Part shown: piece by piece, positions 2,499 to 10,840 of the stretch
How the letters are laid out: the number at the start of each line of letters is the position of its first letter
How positions within the stretch are numbered: the stretch's first letter is position 1
DNA from: a virus
Direction: 5' to 3' (one strand)
UHGV virus genome: UHGV-0082263
Length of the DNA: 10,840 nt
Notes under the pieces: generated by a model
The model's input: the letters and a program-made list of their open reading frames with translations, nothing else
Databases searched by the model: none
Told to the model about the DNA's origin: nothing
Translations under genes and position numbers: made by a program

Positions 2499-2593
2499 TC
2501 AATGTACCTTCTGTGTGCAATGCAAAAACATGTGACCAAATACATAGCCACGCTTCATATTTCCCCCTCTCTCATAAACCATTATACCACAAA

Positions 2594-2613
2594 TGTTACG
2601 AATTTGTTACGAA
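2594..2613 (+). repeat. Tandem direct repeat TGTTACGAA-tt-TGTTACGAA (11-bp period)
   Basis: Two exact 9-mers at 2594-2602 and 2605-2613, immediately upstream of a -35-like TTGACA (2619-2624). Confidence 0.6.
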
Positions 2614-2660: not shown

Positions 2661-2698
2661 TAACAGAATAATAACATCTTATGAGAGTCGGAACATGA

Positions 2699-3253
2699 AT
2701 GAGAGACGCAGAATTTAGAGCGATGCTTCAGGCATCGAGACAACGTAACAAGCACAACTCCTACGCTTACACAAACAACCCAACCAGCTACGAACTACCC
2801 AAGCTCACCAAGAAAGAACGCAAAGGCATTGACGAAGTAATTCGTAGCATTACGCCACGAGACAGATTTATGCCAACCAGAAAGAGCACCCAGAACACTA
2901 TTAAAAATTATCTGGCTAACTTTGATTCTTACGAACAATTACCAAGTAAGATTGAAGATGTAATTATCGGATTCTGTAGAAGTGAAGGCCACCCCAAATA
3001 CAACAGAAAGCTATTTTATCTGCTAAAGAATCTTGATGAAATTAACTCAGCTACCGTGACAAATCATCTTCAGCGTCAAGCAACCAGACTTAGCTACGAA
3101 TTACCAACCGATGCCTATTGTGCATTGCTTGCTGTAATGTGTGCAAAGCTAATTGGTATTGTTGAACATCATATTGCCGTTGGGAATATTGAGCCAATGG
3201 AAAACGAGCAACCAGACTTTGAGTTTGACCCGTATATTTTGGAGGAATTTTAA
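2699..3253 (+). CDS. Hypothetical protein (184 aa), first gene of a four-gene coupled cassette
   Basis: ATG 2699, stop TAA 3251-3253, 1 nt before the ATG of the next gene. SD is weak (GAGAG at 2683-2687). Acidic C-terminus (EPMENEQPDFEFDPYILEEF). No motif recognised. Confidence 0.55.
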   Translation: MRDAEFRAMLQASRQRNKHNSYAYTNNPTSYELPKLTKKERKGIDEVIRSITPRDRFMPTRKSTQNTIKNYLANFDSYEQLPSKIEDVIIGFCRSEGHPKYNRKLFYLLKNLDEINSATVTNHLQRQATRLSYELPTDAYCALLAVMCAKLIGIVEHHIAVGNIEPMENEQPDFEFDPYILEEF

Positions 3254-3254
3254 A

Positions 3255-3542
3255 ATGAAAACCAGACACACACTAACCAGAGTTACAAAGACAGCCTTTG
3301 AAGAACTTAACAAAATTAAGAAGGTTACAGGTCTTTCACATGCAGCAGTGATGAAGCTTGCAATTAACCGTGATATTAACGAGCAGGATTTGCTTAATAG
3401 TCGCTTAGAGGCAGCAAGACACCATATCAGGATTAAGCAAGATGACCTTGATAGTCTGAAATCTTTAAATGCTTTTGGACTGGATTTAGCAAGGTTGCTA
3501 AGCATCAAAATTCACAAGTTAAAGTTAGAGATGGGGGTCTGA
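3255..3542 (+). CDS. Putative ribbon-helix-helix (CopG/Arc-like) DNA-binding protein, 95 aa (tentative)
   Basis: ATG 3255 with GGAGGA at 3241-3246 (8-nt spacing). I chose this start over the track start at 3153, which would overlap the upstream gene by 100 nt. The N-terminus TLTRVTKTAFEELNKIKKVTGLSHAAVMKLAI fits the strand / helix / G-x-S turn / helix pattern of RHH folds. Pattern-level only. Confidence 0.5.
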   Translation: MKTRHTLTRVTKTAFEELNKIKKVTGLSHAAVMKLAINRDINEQDLLNSRLEAARHHIRIKQDDLDSLKSLNAFGLDLARLLSIKIHKLKLEMGV

Positions 3543-3757
3543 TGCTATGCGTTACCTTTGAATACCACACGGATAAAATGATTCGCTACATCTCCGACCT
3601 CCTGATTAAAGGAAACGGATTCGGTGACATCCATAACTCAAAAGATATTTTCATTAAAGCCATTGGCCCAAATGAAGCACTGAAAACAGCAGTTAAACCG
3701 GAATGGTTTGAGCGTCACAAGATTGAATTAGGTTATTGGGGTGAGGAGGTTTTATGA
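3542..3757 (+). CDS. Hypothetical protein (71 aa)
   Basis: ATG 3542 overlaps the upstream TGA (tgATG); G-rich tract at 3533-3537. Its stop overlaps the start of the next gene (ATGA at 3754-3757). No motif recognised. Confidence 0.45.
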   Translation: MLCVTFEYHTDKMIRYISDLLIKGNGFGDIHNSKDIFIKAIGPNEALKTAVKPEWFERHKIELGYWGEEVL

Positions 3758-4041
3758 AACCTTGGCATGAAGATGTTAGACGATATTTTACAGAACACCT
3801 TATCTATGATGAATCCAGTGATTCCCTGTGCTGGTCTGATGGAGAGTCAGTCACGATAAATACCGACGACTACGGCAACAAAACATTTAATATAGGCCGA
3901 TATACTTTCTACGTGAAATATGTTGTCTGGTTCCTTTATCATGGCTATCAATCCAACAAGCAAATTATCCATCGAAATGGTAACAGAGCCGATACCAGAC
4001 CAAAAAATCTTATGCAAGTCCGAGACTTTAAGAGAAATTAG
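3754..4041 (+). CDS. Small HNH endonuclease (HNH_3-like, phage/homing type), 95 aa
   Basis: ATG 3754 with GAGGAGG at 3743-3749, stop TAG 4039-4041. The C-terminal IIHRNGNRADTRPKNL matches the H-x-N-G-N ... D-x-R-x-x-N-L core I recall for the HNH_3/AP2-type family. No search run. Confidence 0.55.
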   Translation: MKPWHEDVRRYFTEHLIYDESSDSLCWSDGESVTINTDDYGNKTFNIGRYTFYVKYVVWFLYHGYQSNKQIIHRNGNRADTRPKNLMQVRDFKRN

Positions 4042-4048
4042 AAAAACA

Positions 4049-4078
4049 GCTTCTCAGACGCTCTCAATCGCATTCTAA
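4049..4078 (-). repeat. Repeat element E2, inverted copy of E1 (gcttctcagacgctctcaatcgcattctaa)
   Basis: 27/30 identical to the reverse complement of 601-630. Starts 8 nt after the HNH stop codon. Confidence 0.75.
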
Positions 4079-4149
4079 CGCAAAAAACTATCTTATTTTA
4101 GGGTGGGTAATACCACTGTACAGGCTACCCCTGAAAAAGACTGTTTAGC

Positions 4150-4172
4150 TCGTTACAGAGCGATTGAGGAGG
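4150..4172 (+). repeat. Repeat element E3, degenerate direct copy of E1 (tcgttacagagcgattgaggagg)
   Basis: Contains the exact 12-mer cgttacagagcg; about 18/23 identical to E1 608-630. Forms an inverted pair with E2 across ~70 bp and ends just upstream of the SD of the 4198 gene. Confidence 0.6.
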
Positions 4173-4197
4173 TCTGGTAAAAAGGAGATTTTAAGAA

Positions 4198-4503
4198 ATG
4201 AATTATTCAATGCAAGTTATGGTTGACCAAGAAACTATGAATTGGCTTAATGACCTGAACAGGTCAGGCTTTAATATCTATTTCATGCATTGTTTTGAAG
4301 CATCAACGTATATTGACAAGCATATAATCAACGAAATTAAACTTGGTGACTTTGTTCACAAACTGGAAGTAACAGACCCAGACTACAAGAGATTTATCAC
4401 AAGCGAATGCAACCGACTTGATTTAAGCCCGGAGCAATTATTGAAGCTGAATGTATTCTTAACCTATCAGAATGAATTAAACCCTTACAGTGAGGTGATG
4501 TAA
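4198..4503 (+). CDS. Hypothetical protein (101 aa)
   Basis: ATG 4198 with AAAGGAG at 4181-4187, stop TAA 4501-4503. No motif recognised. Confidence 0.5.
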   Translation: MNYSMQVMVDQETMNWLNDLNRSGFNIYFMHCFEASTYIDKHIINEIKLGDFVHKLEVTDPDYKRFITSECNRLDLSPEQLLKLNVFLTYQNELNPYSEVM

Positions 4504-4580
4504 TGATGCTCGTTATTCTCTGGACGGCTTTAGGGTTATTTGTTGGTTGCTGGGTAGGTAATACGGTAAATAAGAATTGA
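4503..4580 (+). CDS. Small hydrophobic peptide (24-25 aa), possible membrane peptide
   Basis: Tandem ATGs at 4503 and 4506 overlapping the upstream TAA; GAGGTG at 4492-4497 (5 or 8 nt spacing); stop TGA 4578-4580. Translation MMLVILWTALGLFVGCWVGNTVNKN is one hydrophobic helix plus a short polar tail. Below the length cutoff of the ORF track. Confidence 0.35.
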   Translation: MMLVILWTALGLFVGCWVGNTVNKN

Positions 4581-4604
4581 TGTTACCAATCTGTTAAAAA
4601 GCTG

Positions 4605-4642: not shown

Positions 4643-4659
4643 AGAGAGAATTTCTCTCT
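4643..4659 (+). promoter_or_regulatory. Perfect palindrome AGAGAGAA-t-TTCTCTCT at the predicted transcript start (operator candidate or 5-prime hairpin)
   Basis: 8-bp arms with a 1-nt centre, beginning about 10 nt after the -10 hexamer. Confidence 0.45.
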
Positions 4660-4808
4660 TATTTCTTTCAACAATTCCATCTACATCTAGGGATAGTTAT
4701 TCTGAAAGGTGCAATGCTTTTCGCTACATGGCCTCTTATATAACCTGAGAGGCTATCTCGAAAAGTCTTTGTTCATTCATTCGTTTGAATCCTTTACAGC
4801 TTTGCCCT

Positions 4809-4836
4809 GATTCATGATTAGGGCTTTCTTTAAGAG
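4809..4836 (+). repeat. Leader direct repeat copy 1 (gattcatgattagggctttctttaagag)
   Basis: About 25/29 identical to 4913-4941. Confidence 0.55.
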
Positions 4837-6411: not shown

Positions 6412-6454
6412 TTTGAGATTAGCTTCTAATAGAATTGGTTGGGTAAAAATCTAC

Positions 6455-6545: not shown

Positions 6546-8717
6546 ATGGCACAGTTTAAAGTTGATGATTTTCTGATTGAGTTAAGTTTTAACTCTCAGA
6601 AAGTTTTAAAAGGTCTGGAAAAAGCCGAGAAACAAACGATGCAGGTAGCATCACGAATTGAGAAGCGATTGAATAAGGCGTTTAAAGTGAATCCTACGCC
6701 TTTAAATGATTCTCTCAAACTAATGGAAAAGAATGTCGATAAAACTGTTTCCAAGATTGAGCAGCGTCTTAAAAACACTAAAGCGTTTAAGATTAAAACT
6801 GAAATTGAGGATACTCTAAAGCCACTTAGACAGCCAAGACAGCCACGAATTAGCGGCAACAGAGCAATCACAGCAGCGCATAGCGTGAATATGTCTAAGC
6901 TTGGTGATATTAATCCGCTGATGGCTAAAATGTTTAAAGCACAGTATTACAGCTTAAGCGGTAAGGCTGGTAATATTGGAAGTGAAAAGTTTAACGCTGA
7001 ACTTGCAATATTAAATCAATCTCTTCGTGAAACGTTGAATAAACTCAGGTCACAGACAAAGACCACCAGCATTAACAATACAAGCGACGCATTTAATAAT
7101 CTTGCAAGCAATGCAATCAAGTTATCTGGTGCATTTTACTCTGTGATGGGTGCTCTTAACGCTTACAAGGCCATCATGAATGCAGGTCTTAAACGAGATT
7201 CCGCACAGAGAGCCGCTAAGTTTGTACTTGGTGATAAAGCATCTGAAGCTGAGGTATTTATTCGAAATTTAGCAGACAAGACAGGTCTTAATATCTCTGA
7301 AGGGCTATCAAGCTACGCTAAGTTTGCAGCAGGTGCTCAGGGTTCTATGTCACAGGAACAGACACAGGAGCTATTTGGTAATGCAACGGCTATGAGTCGC
7401 TTAATGGGGCTTTCTAACGATGAGCTAAACGGCATTTTGAAAGCTTTTGAGCAGATGGCGAGCAAGGGCAAGATTCAGGCTGAAGAGCTTCGTGGACAGT
7501 TGGGTGACCGTATGGCTGGTGCATTTAAGCTATTCGCTGAAGCATTGGGTATGACTGCTACAGAGCTTGATAAAGCGATGAAAGACGGGAAGATTTTAAG
7601 TAGTGATACTCTCCCTAAAGTCGCTAAACAGATGGGCTTGATGATTGATAAAGCGGGTGGCTGGGCTGAAGTCGCTAAGAGCACTCAGACAGCTTTAGGG
7701 AAACTGGCTAACAACTGGGATGATACGATGGTGAAAATCTTCTCAGGTTCACAGGATGAGCTAAACGGCTTCTTATCCAGCCTGAGTAACCTGCTTAGTG
7801 AAATGGGGATGAGTTCTTCTATCGCTGGTGATGCTATCGGTGGACTTATCGACATGCTTAAAGCTGGTGTAGATGACATCCGTATCTTTAACAATCACCT
7901 TGAAGGCTGGATTTTACAGACTAAGAAGTTCTATTACAGCCTTGATGACACTAAACGAAAACTACTTGATGAAGTCGGTGATGGATTTATCAATTTTGTC
8001 AAAGGTCTTGCTATAGCGTTATCTGCAAAGACGCTATTCAGTGCCACTACAGGGATTATGAACCTGACAAGAGCAATCACAACGTTAGGTACAAGAGCTA
8101 ATCAGGTGGCTGGTCAGGTAGCTACTGGTAAAGGTGGTGGAAAACTGAAAGGTGTAGCTGGTGGTGTAGGTAGTGCTCTTGCAATTGGTTATGCTGATGA
8201 CGGTTATGAAACAGCGTTAGCATTAGCTTCAATGATTCCACAAATCAGAGGCGTCACTCTTGGTTTATATGCATTGAAGAAAGCACTGGATTTTATGAAT
8301 CAGGAAGTAGTCAAAAACGCTAATATGCATCCATCTGGGGTAGGTGTGGGTAGTGACTTTAATCCTGTGTATTCTGGTGACCCTAATAAACCGAATATGA
8401 TTAACGAAGGATGGAGTAGAATTTTTAGTTCAATGGGTGAATTGTTTAACAATGCCACAATGAATATTGCAAGATTCAATCATCCAGAATTGATTACCAT
8501 GAAACAAGATGCATCATTAACGAGCACTGACATCCAAAATCTAAGAGATGAAATTAGTGCTTTAAGTAAGCGTATTCAGGAGCCTGTGAAAGTTTCACTT
8601 GGTGGTGAAGTTGCCATTAAACCAGATGAAACCAGCTTTATGACCTTTAGCAGTAATATCTACGACCAATATGCAGAAGCTACGTTATTAAGTTCATCAT
8701 TCCCAGAAGATGATTGA
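6546..8717 (+). CDS. Phage tail tape-measure protein (723 aa)
   Basis: ATG 6546 with GAGGTGA at 6529-6535, stop TGA 8715-8717. The central segment LNGILKAFEQMASKGKIQAEELRGQLGDRMAGAFKLFAEALGMTATELDKAMKDGKILSSDTLPKV matches the conserved tape-measure domain signature as I recall it. Also has a glycine-rich hydrophobic stretch (GKGGGKLKGVAGGVGSALAIGY) and a long helical N-terminal region, both typical of tape-measure proteins. Confidence 0.8.
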   Translation: MAQFKVDDFLIELSFNSQKVLKGLEKAEKQTMQVASRIEKRLNKAFKVNPTPLNDSLKLMEKNVDKTVSKIEQRLKNTKAFKIKTEIEDTLKPLRQPRQPRISGNRAITAAHSVNMSKLGDINPLMAKMFKAQYYSLSGKAGNIGSEKFNAELAILNQSLRETLNKLRSQTKTTSINNTSDAFNNLASNAIKLSGAFYSVMGALNAYKAIMNAGLKRDSAQRAAKFVLGDKASEAEVFIRNLADKTGLNISEGLSSYAKFAAGAQGSMSQEQTQELFGNATAMSRLMGLSNDELNGILKAFEQMASKGKIQAEELRGQLGDRMAGAFKLFAEALGMTATELDKAMKDGKILSSDTLPKVAKQMGLMIDKAGGWAEVAKSTQTALGKLANNWDDTMVKIFSGSQDELNGFLSSLSNLLSEMGMSSSIAGDAIGGLIDMLKAGVDDIRIFNNHLEGWILQTKKFYYSLDDTKRKLLDEVGDGFINFVKGLAIALSAKTLFSATTGIMNLTRAITTLGTRANQVAGQVATGKGGGKLKGVAGGVGSALAIGYADDGYETALALASMIPQIRGVTLGLYALKKALDFMNQEVVKNANMHPSGVGVGSDFNPVYSGDPNKPNMINEGWSRIFSSMGELFNNATMNIARFNHPELITMKQDASLTSTDIQNLRDEISALSKRIQEPVKVSLGGEVAIKPDETSFMTFSSNIYDQYAEATLLSSSFPEDD

Positions 8718-8812: not shown

Positions 8813-8856
8813 TCAAAGGCTTGGTTAAAAATGATTAAAATACACTAAGCCTTTGA
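8813..8856 (+). promoter_or_regulatory. 10-bp inverted repeat (tcaaaggctt ... aagcctttga) with 24-nt AT-rich spacer, just upstream of the SD of the 8874 gene
   Basis: Arms at 8813-8822 and 8847-8856 are exact reverse complements; the SD AAAGGAG at 8861-8867 follows. Confidence 0.4.
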
Positions 8857-8873
8857 AATCAAAGGAGAATTTA

Positions 8874-9662
8874 ATGATTTACACTAATCAAATCCGCTAC
8901 AGTGGCAAAGATGGCATCTATTTCCACTTAAGAGATAATGTAGATGCCTTCTTAACCCTATCAGCAACTGAGAACATGGAATTTGATAGTCCTATGCAGG
9001 TAACTACACAGAATATGCAATCAGGGCAAACAGTCACAGATAATGTGCAAAGAGCACCCAGAACAATCACTATTAGTGGTGTCGTCGTAGTTGGCTATGA
9101 AGGGAGCTTATTACTAACTCGTCAAGGCCAATTAGTAGAGAACTTCATCGACACTCTTGAAAGCTGGCGTGACCAGAAGCAGATTATTTCGGTCATCTGT
9201 AAAGATGGTATCAAGATTGATGATTCCATTATTACGAGTTTTAAAGCCTCTAAAGATGTTGGTATTTCAAATGGTCTAAGAATCCAGCTAACTTTTCAGG
9301 AAATTAACTTCAAAGCTGTTGTGGGTCAAACTGATATCTCGGCTGCAACTGGAAAGGCTGCCACTACGAATGATGGTGGTGTGACCAGTAAGAAGAATGC
9401 AGGTAACGTGACCACTGAACGCAATAACGCGCCTATGCTATCGTGCAAAGAGCTAATGAGTATTAGCGATGTATCCGGTTACGCTCCAGCTATCAGAAAT
9501 GATATTCTCGATGCTCAGATTAAGTGTAATAAGGCTTGGAAGCTGGACTATTCAGACTTAACAGAAGCTGAAAAAACCAACGTCACCAATGCTAATAGTA
9601 ACGCTGGTCGAGTAGCTTCAAAGCTTAAAAAGTACTCAGTGAACCCTAATAAAAAATACTAA
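8874..9662 (+). CDS. Hypothetical protein (262 aa); possible tail or baseplate component by position
   Basis: ATG 8874 with AAAGGAG at 8861-8867, preferred over the track TTG start at 8853. Stop TAA 9660-9662 overlaps the stop of the convergent recombinase gene. Sits directly downstream of the tape-measure gene. No motif recognised. Confidence 0.55.
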
Positions 9663-10786
9663 GCGTCCACCTCTTCCATATCACCAGCAGGATAAATCCT
9701 TGTTACTGGTTCACCAAAAATAAGCATATCATCTAATGACTGCATCTCATCGGTTGCTTCTTCAAGCGTTAAGGTGTGGTCATCTTTACCATCAAGAGGA
9801 AAACCACGAATCATATTTCCATTGTGAAGATATATATCCACCAGCTTTTCATTACCAGAAACAACAATCTCTTTCACCAGACGCTTAATGATAATCTGGG
9901 CTTCAGTTCTCCCCTCTACAGACTCCATATCAAGACCGCTTAAATCCAAGCTTGATACAGATTTTACCCTCGCCTTTTCTCGTGATAACTGAACTATCAG
10001 TTCATCTTTTTCTTCCTGTTTAACCCGTAGTGCTTCCTGAATCTGAGTGATGTTAGGAAGCTGTATCAGCGTCTCAGTGAGTTTTTCCAGTTCACCATCA
10101 ACGGTGTTTAATCTTCTTTGTAGTTCATCTAATTTAGCTGTATCGGTAGCTTCATCGTGTAGCTGTGACAGTTTGCTGAACAGACGACTACAAAGCTGTG
10201 TATCAAGTAACTTTCTGGACACTGTACCGTAGCTACAACGGGACTCCTTATTACCATTGCAACGGTAAGTACCTTGATAAACGGGTTTACGTATCCCTGT
10301 AGGAGTCATTACAAGCCCACACTTACAACGGATAAGCCCCTTCAGTATGTTCACATATAGCCAGTGTTCACCGCTGGATGTTTTCCCCTTCCCTGTTTCC
10401 TCTAACAGTTGCTGTACAGCGTAAAACTTAGAATCTGTGACAATCTGAGGATAGAACCCTTCAATTTCTTCACGTAACACTGTTTTACGGTCTTCTGTAG
10501 AAATCTTGGCGGGAAGGTAACCTAATACACTTCGTGAAGTCAGGATGTGTTTAACGCTTAAAGCTGACCAGTTACCATCCGGTTTCTTAGTCTTGGATAT
10601 TCTGACCTTACGCTGATTAATGGTCGGGTAACCTTGTTCGTTTAGCCATTTACAGATAGCAAACATCGACATACCAGAAAGACGCTTGTCATAGATGATA
10701 TTCACCAGTGACGCTTTATCTTCATCAACGATGTAGTGTGAACCGTCTTCTGATAGCTCTAACCATCCGGGGGCTTGCTTACCCAT
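9659..10786 (-). CDS. Large serine recombinase, recombinase-domain + zinc-ribbon + coiled-coil portion (375 aa); N-terminal catalytic domain not in this ORF
   Basis: Translation opens with GKQAPGW...[37 protein letters not shown], which looks like the start of the recombinase domain. It then has [16 protein letters not shown]...[21 protein letters not shown], the four-Cys zinc ribbon typical of large serine recombinases, and a long coiled-coil-like C-terminus. No resolvase catalytic motif is present. An in-frame TGA (10796-10798) lies 3 codons upstream of the ATG and no SD precedes the ATG. Confidence 0.8.
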
Positions 10787-10840
10787 TGCGTATTTTCATG
10801 AAAGGAGATCACTCAATAACTTCCATCGAGATCGGGTAAT

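Follow-up and report, generated by a model that had tools for sequence, protein, structure and literature searches.

A candidate regulatory operon with a homing-endonuclease-like HNH mini-gene in a satellite-like chromosomal island of Escherichia coli

The viral genome sequence UHGV-0082263 (10,840 nt; hereafter the window, meaning this whole stretch of DNA) contains between positions 2699 and 4041 a cassette of four tightly packed genes, here called g1 to g4, which we analyzed together with related islands. Our results point, with moderate confidence, to a promoter-proximal regulatory operon of a satellite-like island, consisting of g1, g2 and a variable small gene, together with a homing-endonuclease-like HNH mini-gene, and not to a toxin-antitoxin (TA) or defense pair. 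We hold our confidence at this middle level because we infer DNA binding, regulation and homing alike. The window consists essentially of a single integrative island of ~11 kb that encodes a large serine recombinase and carries phage tail genes, and the collinear islands compared with it were L001-L004, L009 from E. albertii, L010 from Citrobacter, L011-L014, L016 and L017.

All four genes lie on the plus strand. The constant first gene, g1 (2699-3253), encodes 184 amino acids (aa) and is followed by the constant second gene g2 (3255-3542, 95 aa), by g3 (3542-3757, 71 aa), an orphan and replaceable occupant of a variable slot, and by g4 (3754-4041, 95 aa), which encodes a minimal HNH_3-family protein, the allele termed HNH-a below. 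These positions and the overlapping or 1-nt-spaced junctions agree with an earlier, sequence-only reading of this DNA, except that it spoke of four such junctions and there are three. Between g1 and g2, a single a separates the stop codon TAA (3251-3253) from the ATG (3255); at the g2/g3 junction, tgATG, the TGA (3540-3542) and the ATG (3542) have one A in common, a 1-nt overlap; g3 and g4 overlap by 4 nt in ATGA (3754-3757). Shine-Dalgarno (SD)-like runs are present 5′ of g2 (GGAGG), g3 (GGGGG) and g4 (GAGGAGG), and the tight junctions were found again in related islands. We place the start of g2 at ATG 3255, the longer TTG-initiated open reading frame (ORF) from 3153 being mechanical. In some RefSeq strains g3 is annotated from an internal ATG (59 aa); the 11 upstream codons of the long form are kept as protein, and its start lies on the g2 stop. 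Pairwise Nei-Gojobori comparisons of the cassette genes between islands gave ratios of non-synonymous to synonymous substitution rates (dN/dS) of 0.14-0.33 for g1, 0.09-0.32 for g2, 0.07-0.24 for g3 and 0.06-0.25 for g4. Because the ratio is well below 1 in each, all four are real genes that are maintained at the protein level by purifying selection.

The cassette proteins and their neighbors were scanned against Pfam, PHROGs, NCBIfam and PADLOC. Within the cassette, g4 was the sole protein with a significant family match, while the neighbors gave Dam and tape-measure matches. The HNH identity proposed earlier for g4 was borne out by Pfam HNH_3 (PF13392; E 1.8e-8, 34.3 bits vs. a cut-off of 24.8), with which the PHROG HNH families agree. 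The two proteins described as having no recognizable motif, g1 and g3, were indeed without a family match in Pfam, NCBIfam and PADLOC. As judged from three word-indexed searches and one exhaustive HMMER search, g1, g2 and g3 are lineage-restricted orphans. PDB sequence searches with the cassette proteins revealed nothing significant, and matches of g4 to antibodies were discarded as spurious. Among 50,697 phage records searched by tblastn, g1 and g4 had no close homologue (weak matches were 28-37% identical, E 2e-4 to 2e-3) and g2 and g3 had no match even at E 1, in agreement with the view that the cassette is not a structural phage module. The cassette proteins also had no counterpart within 20 kb around the Felixounavirus tape-measure gene.

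A predicted near-consensus sigma-70 promoter, P1 (2619-2647, plus strand), lies 52 nt 5′ of g1 and consists of TTGACA, a 17-nt spacer and TG-n-TAGTAT with an extended -10 (10/12 with TG in the consensus scan). Across nine islands, that of Citrobacter among them, its -35 does not vary and its -10 hardly does. A second promoter, P2 (4605-4633, plus strand; TTGACA, 17 nt, TG-n-CATAAT; scan 11/12), heads the operon that runs from g6 through the tape measure to the baseplate gene. Both are accompanied by copies of a 17-nt motif, ATGTTA-N6-TGTTA, which occurs exactly three times in the window vs. 0.01 times expected; none of 200 shuffles gave three copies. The copy O1 (ATGTTACGAATTTGTTA, 2593-2609, plus strand) ends 10 nt 5′ of the P1 -35, the inverted copy O2 (2661-2677, minus strand) lies 14 nt 3′ of the P1 -10, and O3 (ATGTTACCAATCTGTTA, 4580-4596, plus strand) ends 9 nt 5′ of the P2 -35. 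O1 is conserved in nine aligned islands and occupies the same place in all fetched islands. O2 is exact in the window, L001, L002, L014, L016 and L017, with no exact match at that position elsewhere, although all nine of the aligned islands retain its GTTAACA...TAACA core; a position such as that of O2 relative to the -10 is typical of repressor sites. P2 and O3 show essentially no variation among 12 islands, and the motif is found at both P1 and P2 in every fetched island. Because the two promoters have this operator motif in common, the cassette appears to be linked to the control of the tail genes, and the regulatory look ascribed to the unit from its sequence holds.

Divergent from g1, on the minus strand, lies orf62 (2310-2498), which encodes 58-62 aa with one hydrophobic helix (GGGIGLIAGLLLRYVLVRVLVVF). 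A divergent promoter-like site (2610-2581) faces this gene, and its -35-like GTAACA overlaps O1. We found orf62 conserved as a protein in nine of nine other island loci (66% identity with an in-frame indel in Citrobacter); only a part of the RefSeq records annotate it.

Homologues of g1 fall into 1,084 clusters at 90% identity, and the exhaustive HMMER search (1.84 billion representatives) returned one full-length 50% cluster, fragments and four ~30% relatives. The AlphaFold2 model of g1 has a predicted local distance difference test (pLDDT) score of 73 overall and 82-91 for residues 60-162. In it, an N-terminal part that is flexible precedes a bundle of helices (H83-96, H99-111, H117-131, H138-161), in which residues ~83-131 form a helix-turn-helix (HTH)-like core with a basic "recognition" helix; in helix 117-131 a basic pattern, N-(R/Q)-(K/R/Q)-R, is conserved in distant relatives. 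The C-terminal tail is acidic-aromatic and ends ...DFEFDPYILEEF / ...NEQPDFEFDPYILEEF, with a terminal Phe in all aligned close homologues. Scans of g1 against the four family collections gave nothing significant, only a weak match to phrog_23123. Its modeled fold had no match among solved structures, and Foldseek against viral models (BFVD) retrieved only uncharacterized phage proteins (best E 8.3e-6). The best of these is probably the protein of Aeromonas phage 85AhydR10PP that was also found by tblastn (E 2e-3). This phage (L015, 5956-7126) is the sole sequenced one with a detectable g1 relative (171 aa, phrog_23123), which is located 3′ of an 845-nt non-coding gap and followed directly by a 201-aa HNH gene, an echo of the g1...HNH order of the islands.

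A more distant island from another bacterium (L005, L006 and L007, which represent one island) carries a 30% identical g1 relative, P0193. It lies in the DUF72/yecE-aspS region and is arranged in the order Dam, a 146-aa gene, the g1-like gene, small genes, tape measure and large serine recombinase. There g1 is the sole cassette protein retained, and the same motif is present beside TTGACA, ~180 nt 5′ of the g1-like gene. Because g1 alone is kept in an island that also keeps the motif, g1 is a candidate binder of the ATGTTA-N6-TGTTA sites.

Comparison of gene junctions with L003 and L011 showed that the HNH gene is a self-contained mini-gene of ~280 bp, which occurs as two alleles at two gene junctions and is absent from some islands. 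In the window the HNH-a insert spans ~3740-4018 on the plus strand. Where HNH is missing, g3 ends ...GGCTATTGG TAG TCCGAGACTTTAAGAG..., and the junction in YD786 / OkiPb01675 reads ...GGCTATTGGTAGTCCGAGACTTTAAGAG...; the window has GGTGAGGAGGTTTTATGA...(HNH-a)...CAAG in place of that TAG, followed by the same TCCGAGACTTTAAGAGAAATTAG. The insert lengthens g3 by 5 codons and supplies its own GAGGAGG SD sequence and ATGA overlap, and the last 8 codons and the stop of HNH-a are taken from the pre-existing flank. The second allele, HNH-b, is 40% identical to HNH-a and lies at the g2 stop, between the copies of a duplicated SD-stop motif (ATGGAGGTCTGA on one side, CTGGAGATTTAATG on the other). The ATGA and SD junctions around HNH seem to reflect the plugging of a mini-gene into an operon and not a protein complex. 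This contradicts the suggestion that tight junctions imply stoichiometric co-expression, as the junctions around HNH come with the insert itself.

HNH-a was detected in 226 of 5,426 E. coli genomes, in 168 of them at an identity of at least 99% and in none below 95%; HNH-b was present in 67 genomes, always with at least 95% identity. Over the 1.9 kb around them, identity mostly ranges from 60 to 95%, and only 14 of 440 matches reach 95%. When the window was compared with L001 or L014, the stretch ~3540-4197 (g3, HNH-a and the spacer) proved 97-100% identical, vs. 58% for g2 and 45-48% for g5. L016 and L017 have the same near-identical g3+HNH-a block, while their g1 is 63-84% and their tape measure 44-61% identical. 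HNH is thus a gene unit of its own, which some islands have and others lack at a site that is otherwise conserved, flanks included, as expected of a free-standing homing gene. In phage ICP1, alternative HNH-3 homing endonuclease genes (HEGs) that are ~30% identical occupy neighboring positions of one locus, and presence/absence is regarded as a signature of homing (PMC10055350). Because presence/absence, two alleles and a near-identical block match this ICP1 pattern, we liken HNH to a free-standing HNH-3 HEG. On sequence grounds it is best described as a putative homing-endonuclease-like passenger, which may have been domesticated, and not as a proven HEG.

To assess the active site, HNH-a and HNH-b were aligned to I-HmuI, the sequence of which was confirmed against PDB 1U3E. 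According to the paper on that structure, His75 of I-HmuI reportedly acts as the general base, Asp74 and Asn96 as metal ligands, and Asn87 is structural. HNH-a keeps the general-base His (H73 = His75) and the structural Asn-Leu (Asn87-Leu88). Its terminal Asn95 lies one position out of register with Asn96, for which it could substitute. Between HNH-a alleles there are 9.5 synonymous vs. 2.5 non-synonymous differences, and the dN/dS value is 0.06 relative to L004; with this value we rejected the possibility that HNH is a decaying pseudogene.

Several observations weigh against a regulatory operon with a homing-endonuclease-like passenger. In HNH-a an Ile occupies the position of the metal ligand Asp74, and the protein ends 9 residues past Leu86, the helix bearing Asn96 being gone. 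HNH-b has a Phe at the position of His75, ends 4 residues past the Leu and scores 23.5 bits against PF13392, just under the cut-off. Neither has the complete beta-beta-alpha-metal active site of I-HmuI, and the Pfam scan and the I-HmuI alignment revealed in neither a DNA-binding domain beyond the shortened HNH_3 region, such as a homing gene would have for a long site. Catalytic competence and active homing are doubtful, especially for HNH-b, because metal ligands and a DNA-binding domain are missing and HNH-b is without the His. The near-identity of the g3+HNH block could also come from ordinary modular recombination, and the dN/dS of 0.06 suggests selection for a function of the protein, something that a purely selfish remnant could do without. 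With respect to regulation, P1 and P2 both resemble strong sigma-70 promoters of the constitutive kind, which makes "regulated" an assumption, and the association of the motif with g1 in the distant island counts as one element.

Strong purifying selection on HNH-a (dN/dS 0.06) and its presence in about half of the islands would also suit another explanation, in which HNH is a domesticated anti-helper effector, like NixI of PLE, or a DNA-binding regulator, and g1 to g3 are unrelated early genes. A precedent exists in the PLE satellites of a lytic myovirus, which reportedly turn a nuclease on their helper (PMC9410903). We consider this explanation rather unlikely for the HNH gene studied here: its active site is incomplete, it has no DNA-binding domain, many islands are without it, and its two alleles, each at a junction of its own, have the look of insertions and not of an ancestral island gene.

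The g2 protein was found in only 24 clusters, from E. coli and Citrobacter, and exists as two types that are ~55% identical. The AlphaFold2 model, of low confidence (pLDDT 47), shows beta-alpha-alpha twice (E5-10, H12-25, H29-36 and E56-61, H62-70, H78-92), and the predicted strands HTLTR(V/I) and (H/K)HIRI are kept in both types. An internal repeat was not significant by hhalign (P 0.05). Sub-threshold profile matches included DndE (E 0.0075) and CopG (E 0.79). Foldseek with the low-confidence model against PDB gave chains of the F-plasmid relaxosome and AvtR as the best matches, all non-significant. We suggest that g2 is probably a tandem ribbon-helix-helix (RHH) DNA-binding protein, as far as this model can be relied on. 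The earlier assignment of g2 as a putative RHH protein is therefore plausible in its fold, although every profile match stays below threshold.

One further sub-threshold match of g2, to the P27 small terminase family (TIGR01558, TerS_P27; E 6.8e-4), raises the question of a packaging or processing module. In such a module g1 and/or g2 would be small-terminase-like, HNH would be their nuclease partner, and the island would be cut and packaged by a helper phage, in the manner of HK97-like HNH-terminase modules or of the redirecting small terminases of PICIs and PLE. HNH genes adjoining small terminases are a known packaging arrangement (PMC10055350). The size of g1, its helical build and its acidic tail loosely fit a small terminase, a long hairpin and an inverted repeat adjoin HNH, and in Aeromonas phage 85AhydR10PP the g1-like gene is followed by an HNH gene. 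Against this, the terminase match reaches 19.6 bits vs. a cut-off of 45.6 and is the one on which the proposal rests, and HNH is optional. No obvious candidate of large-terminase size is present in the ORF list of the window, and no significant terminase-family match was obtained among the scanned proteins. We regard a packaging module as unlikely.

The order of genes across the collinear islands bears on the question of whether the cassette proteins form a functional pair. The arrangement g1-g2-g3-HNH-a-g5 was found in the window, L001, L002, L004, L014, L016 and L017. L003 has g1-g2-HNH-b-g3-g5 and L011 the HNH-less order g1-g2-g3-g5; L012 and L010 (Citrobacter), also HNH-less, have g1-g2-X128-g5, L013 has g1-g2-HNH-b-X128-g5, and L009 (E. 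albertii) g1-g2-HNH-b-Y87-g3′. Only g1 and g2 are constant, the slot 3′ of g2 is variable, and HNH is optional. X128 (128 aa, with a weak C-terminal HTH) takes the place of g3 in L012, L013 and L010; the idea that it is a diverged g3 was rejected, as the two have no similarity. In L009 an extra 87-aa gene stands beside g3′. The two g2 types occur with g3 or X128 in all four combinations. Because both types occur with both small genes, there is no cognate pairing between them.

The g3 protein itself had no family match in Pfam, PHROGs, NCBIfam or PADLOC and no phage homologue; it forms 31 clusters and has no detectable relative elsewhere. We also considered whether g3 or g2 could be a recombination directionality factor of the serine recombinase. 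This role was rejected because g3 is near-identical (98.6% in DNA and 97% in protein) between islands that differ in integration site and whose recombinases should share only ~31% identity, judging by the value obtained for L003, which occupies the same yecE site.

These gene orders speak against a TA, abortive-infection or defense unit, in which g2 would neutralize or repress a toxic g3 and/or HNH and the four proteins would form a stoichiometric complex. The sequence-only reading had favored an addiction, exclusion or defense cassette, and g2 is RHH-like, the genes are translationally coupled, and RHH antitoxins usually sit 5′ of their toxins. However, HNH is missing from collinear islands, g3 is swapped for unrelated genes, and neither g2 type is tied to g3 or to X128, in contrast to what is expected of a cognate, co-inherited pair. 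No toxin-family match was found for g3 in the four collections; PADLOC gave only chance-level matches for g2 and g4 (E 0.013-0.014) and labeled the neighboring methyltransferase an "orphan MTase". Moreover, HNH is without metal ligands and a DNA-binding domain, and g1, the most conserved gene, fits nowhere in a TA scheme. We therefore find such a unit quite improbable. With its phage-tail decoys and varied cargo, defense at the level of the island is conceivable, and the island as a whole may interfere with phages through genes other than the cassette.

With regard to the host island, the window matches, at 99.8% identity, a stretch of E. coli TUM1886 that lies between ymdF/rutG and wrbA, where insertion sequence (IS) elements interrupt the island; strain MS 196-1 carries an IS-free relative at the ymdF-wrbA site. 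The same architecture was found inside yecE in YD786, FDAARGOS_1252, LR-29-1 and SCEC020001, and near tonB in OkiPb01675, which gives at least three chromosomal integration sites (ymdF-wrbA, yecE and near tonB). The order of elements is attL, a cargo slot, orf62, P1, g1-g2-[variable slot], g5, P2, g6 to tape measure and baseplate gene, and the large serine recombinase. Cassette-related DNA was present in 440 of 5,426 complete E. coli genomes, always on the chromosome and in up to four places per genome. Homologues of g1 occur also in Shigella, Salmonella, Citrobacter, E. albertii and E. fergusonii. A scan of genome contigs gave only two loci, and the two IMG/VR contigs with the island are long prophage-type predictions and not evidence of virions. 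That the cassette is an inert set of early genes left from a decayed prophage, as the IS-cut recombinase of the window and the IS insertions in several islands might suggest, is very improbable given dN/dS well below 1 in all four genes, the architecture and promoters common to islands of E. coli, E. albertii, Citrobacter and Salmonella and to no fewer than three integration sites, and the many copies with an intact recombinase.

Two genes of the island are tied to one phage lineage. The tape measure (6546-8717, 723 aa) and the "baseplate protein" gene (8853-9662, 269 aa) are counterparts of two consecutive Felixounavirus genes, with 32% and 71% aa identity, respectively, to the proteins of Salmonella phage SapYZU01. 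The 5′ part of the baseplate gene (8889-9407) has ~93% DNA identity to many Felix O1-like phages. As a small integrative element with its own integrase, a fixed architecture, several integration sites and genes tied to a single phage lineage, the island has the genomic features expected of a phage satellite.

Other features of the island lie outside the cassette. The large serine recombinase gene (9659-10786, minus strand) is cut by the end of an IS21-family element (10770-10840, a sequence common to hundreds of plasmids and chromosomes), which shortens the product to 375 aa; intact copies have ~500-550 aa, and MS 196-1 and YD786 are among the strains in which the recombinase is intact. The variable cargo slot near the left end holds orf71a and a gene for a Dam-type N6-adenine methyltransferase (1177-1845) fused to a resolvase-like HTH (residues ~177-220). 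In L001, L004, L012 and L014 the equivalent slot is occupied by a gene for a small serine recombinase, which can point either way, for an AP2/ERF-domain protein or for a 277-aa orphan. The first gene 3′ of the cassette, g5 (4198-4503, 101 aa), is followed by genes of 236, 138 and 72 aa and then by the tape measure. It exists in at least two forms, only ~27% identical, which are exchanged independently of the near-identical g3+HNH block. Because terminator-like hairpins (4643-4659 and 4804-4824) come after g5, the transcription unit may run from g1 to g5.

Repeated sequences were also noted. A 22-nt inverted repeat, 95% complementary, has one arm near the left end of the island (490-511, ATTCGATTAGAAGCTAATCTCA) and the other just 5′ of the tape measure gene (6414-6435, TGAGATTAGCTTCTAATAGAAT), 5.9 kb apart. 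A longer inverted repeat of ~126 bp (542-663 and 4016-4137 on the minus strand; 71% identity, E 2e-10 in self-BLAST, with a 31-nt core at 90%) flanks the 3.35-kb segment orf71a-Dam-orf62-g1-g2-g3-HNH. Its right copy (4016) begins exactly at the HNH insertion point, which is the g3 stop in HNH-less islands. The g4-g5 spacer can form a long hairpin (4050-4186, -49.4 kcal/mol, z -4.4), to which the right copy of the repeat contributes; across islands its sequences were either near-identical or unalignable in RNAalifold, and Rfam revealed no RNA family within the window. The sequence GCGTTACAGAGC occurs at 610 (plus), 751 (minus) and 4152 (plus) and in all islands, and it was not found in the 20-kb phage fragment examined. 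The repeat, the hairpin and GCGTTACAGAGC could act in recombination, as an origin or in packaging, or as an RNA element.

Returning to the regulatory operon with its HNH passenger, we propose that g1 would act as a sequence-specific regulator of the island, probably together with the tandem-RHH protein g2, and that the two would bind O1, O2 and O3. Through such binding the cassette would control its own expression, the divergent orf62 promoter would be opposed, and the tail-gene operon would be expressed in step with the cassette. HNH would be a passenger that resembles a free-standing homing endonuclease gene, or a derivative of one domesticated not long ago, and it would spread between islands by gene conversion and carry g3 and the downstream intergenic region along. 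Translational coupling would then be a by-product of operon compaction and of the stop/start overlap rebuilt by the insert. A bolder and more tentative possibility is that the islands represent a new Enterobacteriaceae family of ~11-kb satellites, or tail-interfering islands, which bring along tape measure and baseplate-hub genes of their own and exploit or block virulent Felix O1-like phages as an E. coli counterpart of the Vibrio PLE. The cassette might in that case be the control module, with g1, of a novel fold, reading an operator at both promoters, and HNH mini-genes homing between co-resident islands.

If the regulatory interpretation is true, the cassette is an entry point to the regulation of a widespread island, present in ~8% of complete E. 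coli genomes and with relatives in Shigella, Salmonella, Citrobacter and E. albertii. Felix O1-like phages, to which its tail genes are related, are used for typing and therapy. What is gained is an operator sequence at two promoters, two orphan DNA-binding candidates and a set of naturally occurring islands that have or lack the 280-bp HNH mini-gene, well suited to asking whether so small an HNH still homes or is domesticated. A false lead is also removed, as an RHH gene next to a nuclease gives no ground for cataloging the cassette as TA or defense.

Mobile-island operons, RHH and HTH regulators and free-standing HNH genes are known kinds of elements. The proteins found here are orphans, the fold of g1 is unmatched among solved structures, the HNH is unusually minimal, and the island itself appears to be new, as we found no description of it in the literature searched (satellites, Felixounavirus, wrbA/ymdF, SpLE2/yecE). 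Like TraY of the F plasmid and AvtR, g2 is predicted to have beta-alpha-alpha twice, in one chain of 95 aa with conserved strand residues, and among CopG, Arc and ParD, CopG is its best RHH sequence match. It differs from single-RHH antitoxins in having no adjacent toxin, and the likeness to RHH proteins comes with no significant match and a model of low confidence. With HK97-like HNH-terminase modules the cassette shares a small HNH beside small DNA-binding proteins and the weak TerS_P27 match of g2, but the island is without large terminase and portal, and its HNH is of the HNH_3 type and optional.

The g4 protein shares with I-HmuI of phage SPO1, the T4 Mob genes and ICP1 gp28, gp80 and gp179 the HNH_3 domain, an N-terminal beta-rich region, the general-base His and the Asn-Leu. 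In contrast to phage HNH-3 HEGs, it has only 90-95 aa, is without a zinc-finger, AP2 or HTH domain, and resides in a chromosomal island and not in a phage. In its genetics it resembles the ICP1 HEGs (PMC10055350), as it is likewise a small gene at junctions, with presence/absence, a 40% identical alternative allele and near-identical flanks in diverged genomes.

As for satellites, the island genes have no sequence similarity to those of PLE, PICI, cfPICI and P4, and the island carries tape-measure and baseplate genes. Described satellite families are not known to carry either. PLE is reported to encode its own regulators and a nuclease (PMC9410903, PMC13595925). The island resembles PLE in being small (~11 kb here) and encoding a large serine recombinase, in its compact one-directional operons of orphan genes and variable cargo, and in its sequence links to a virulent myovirus.

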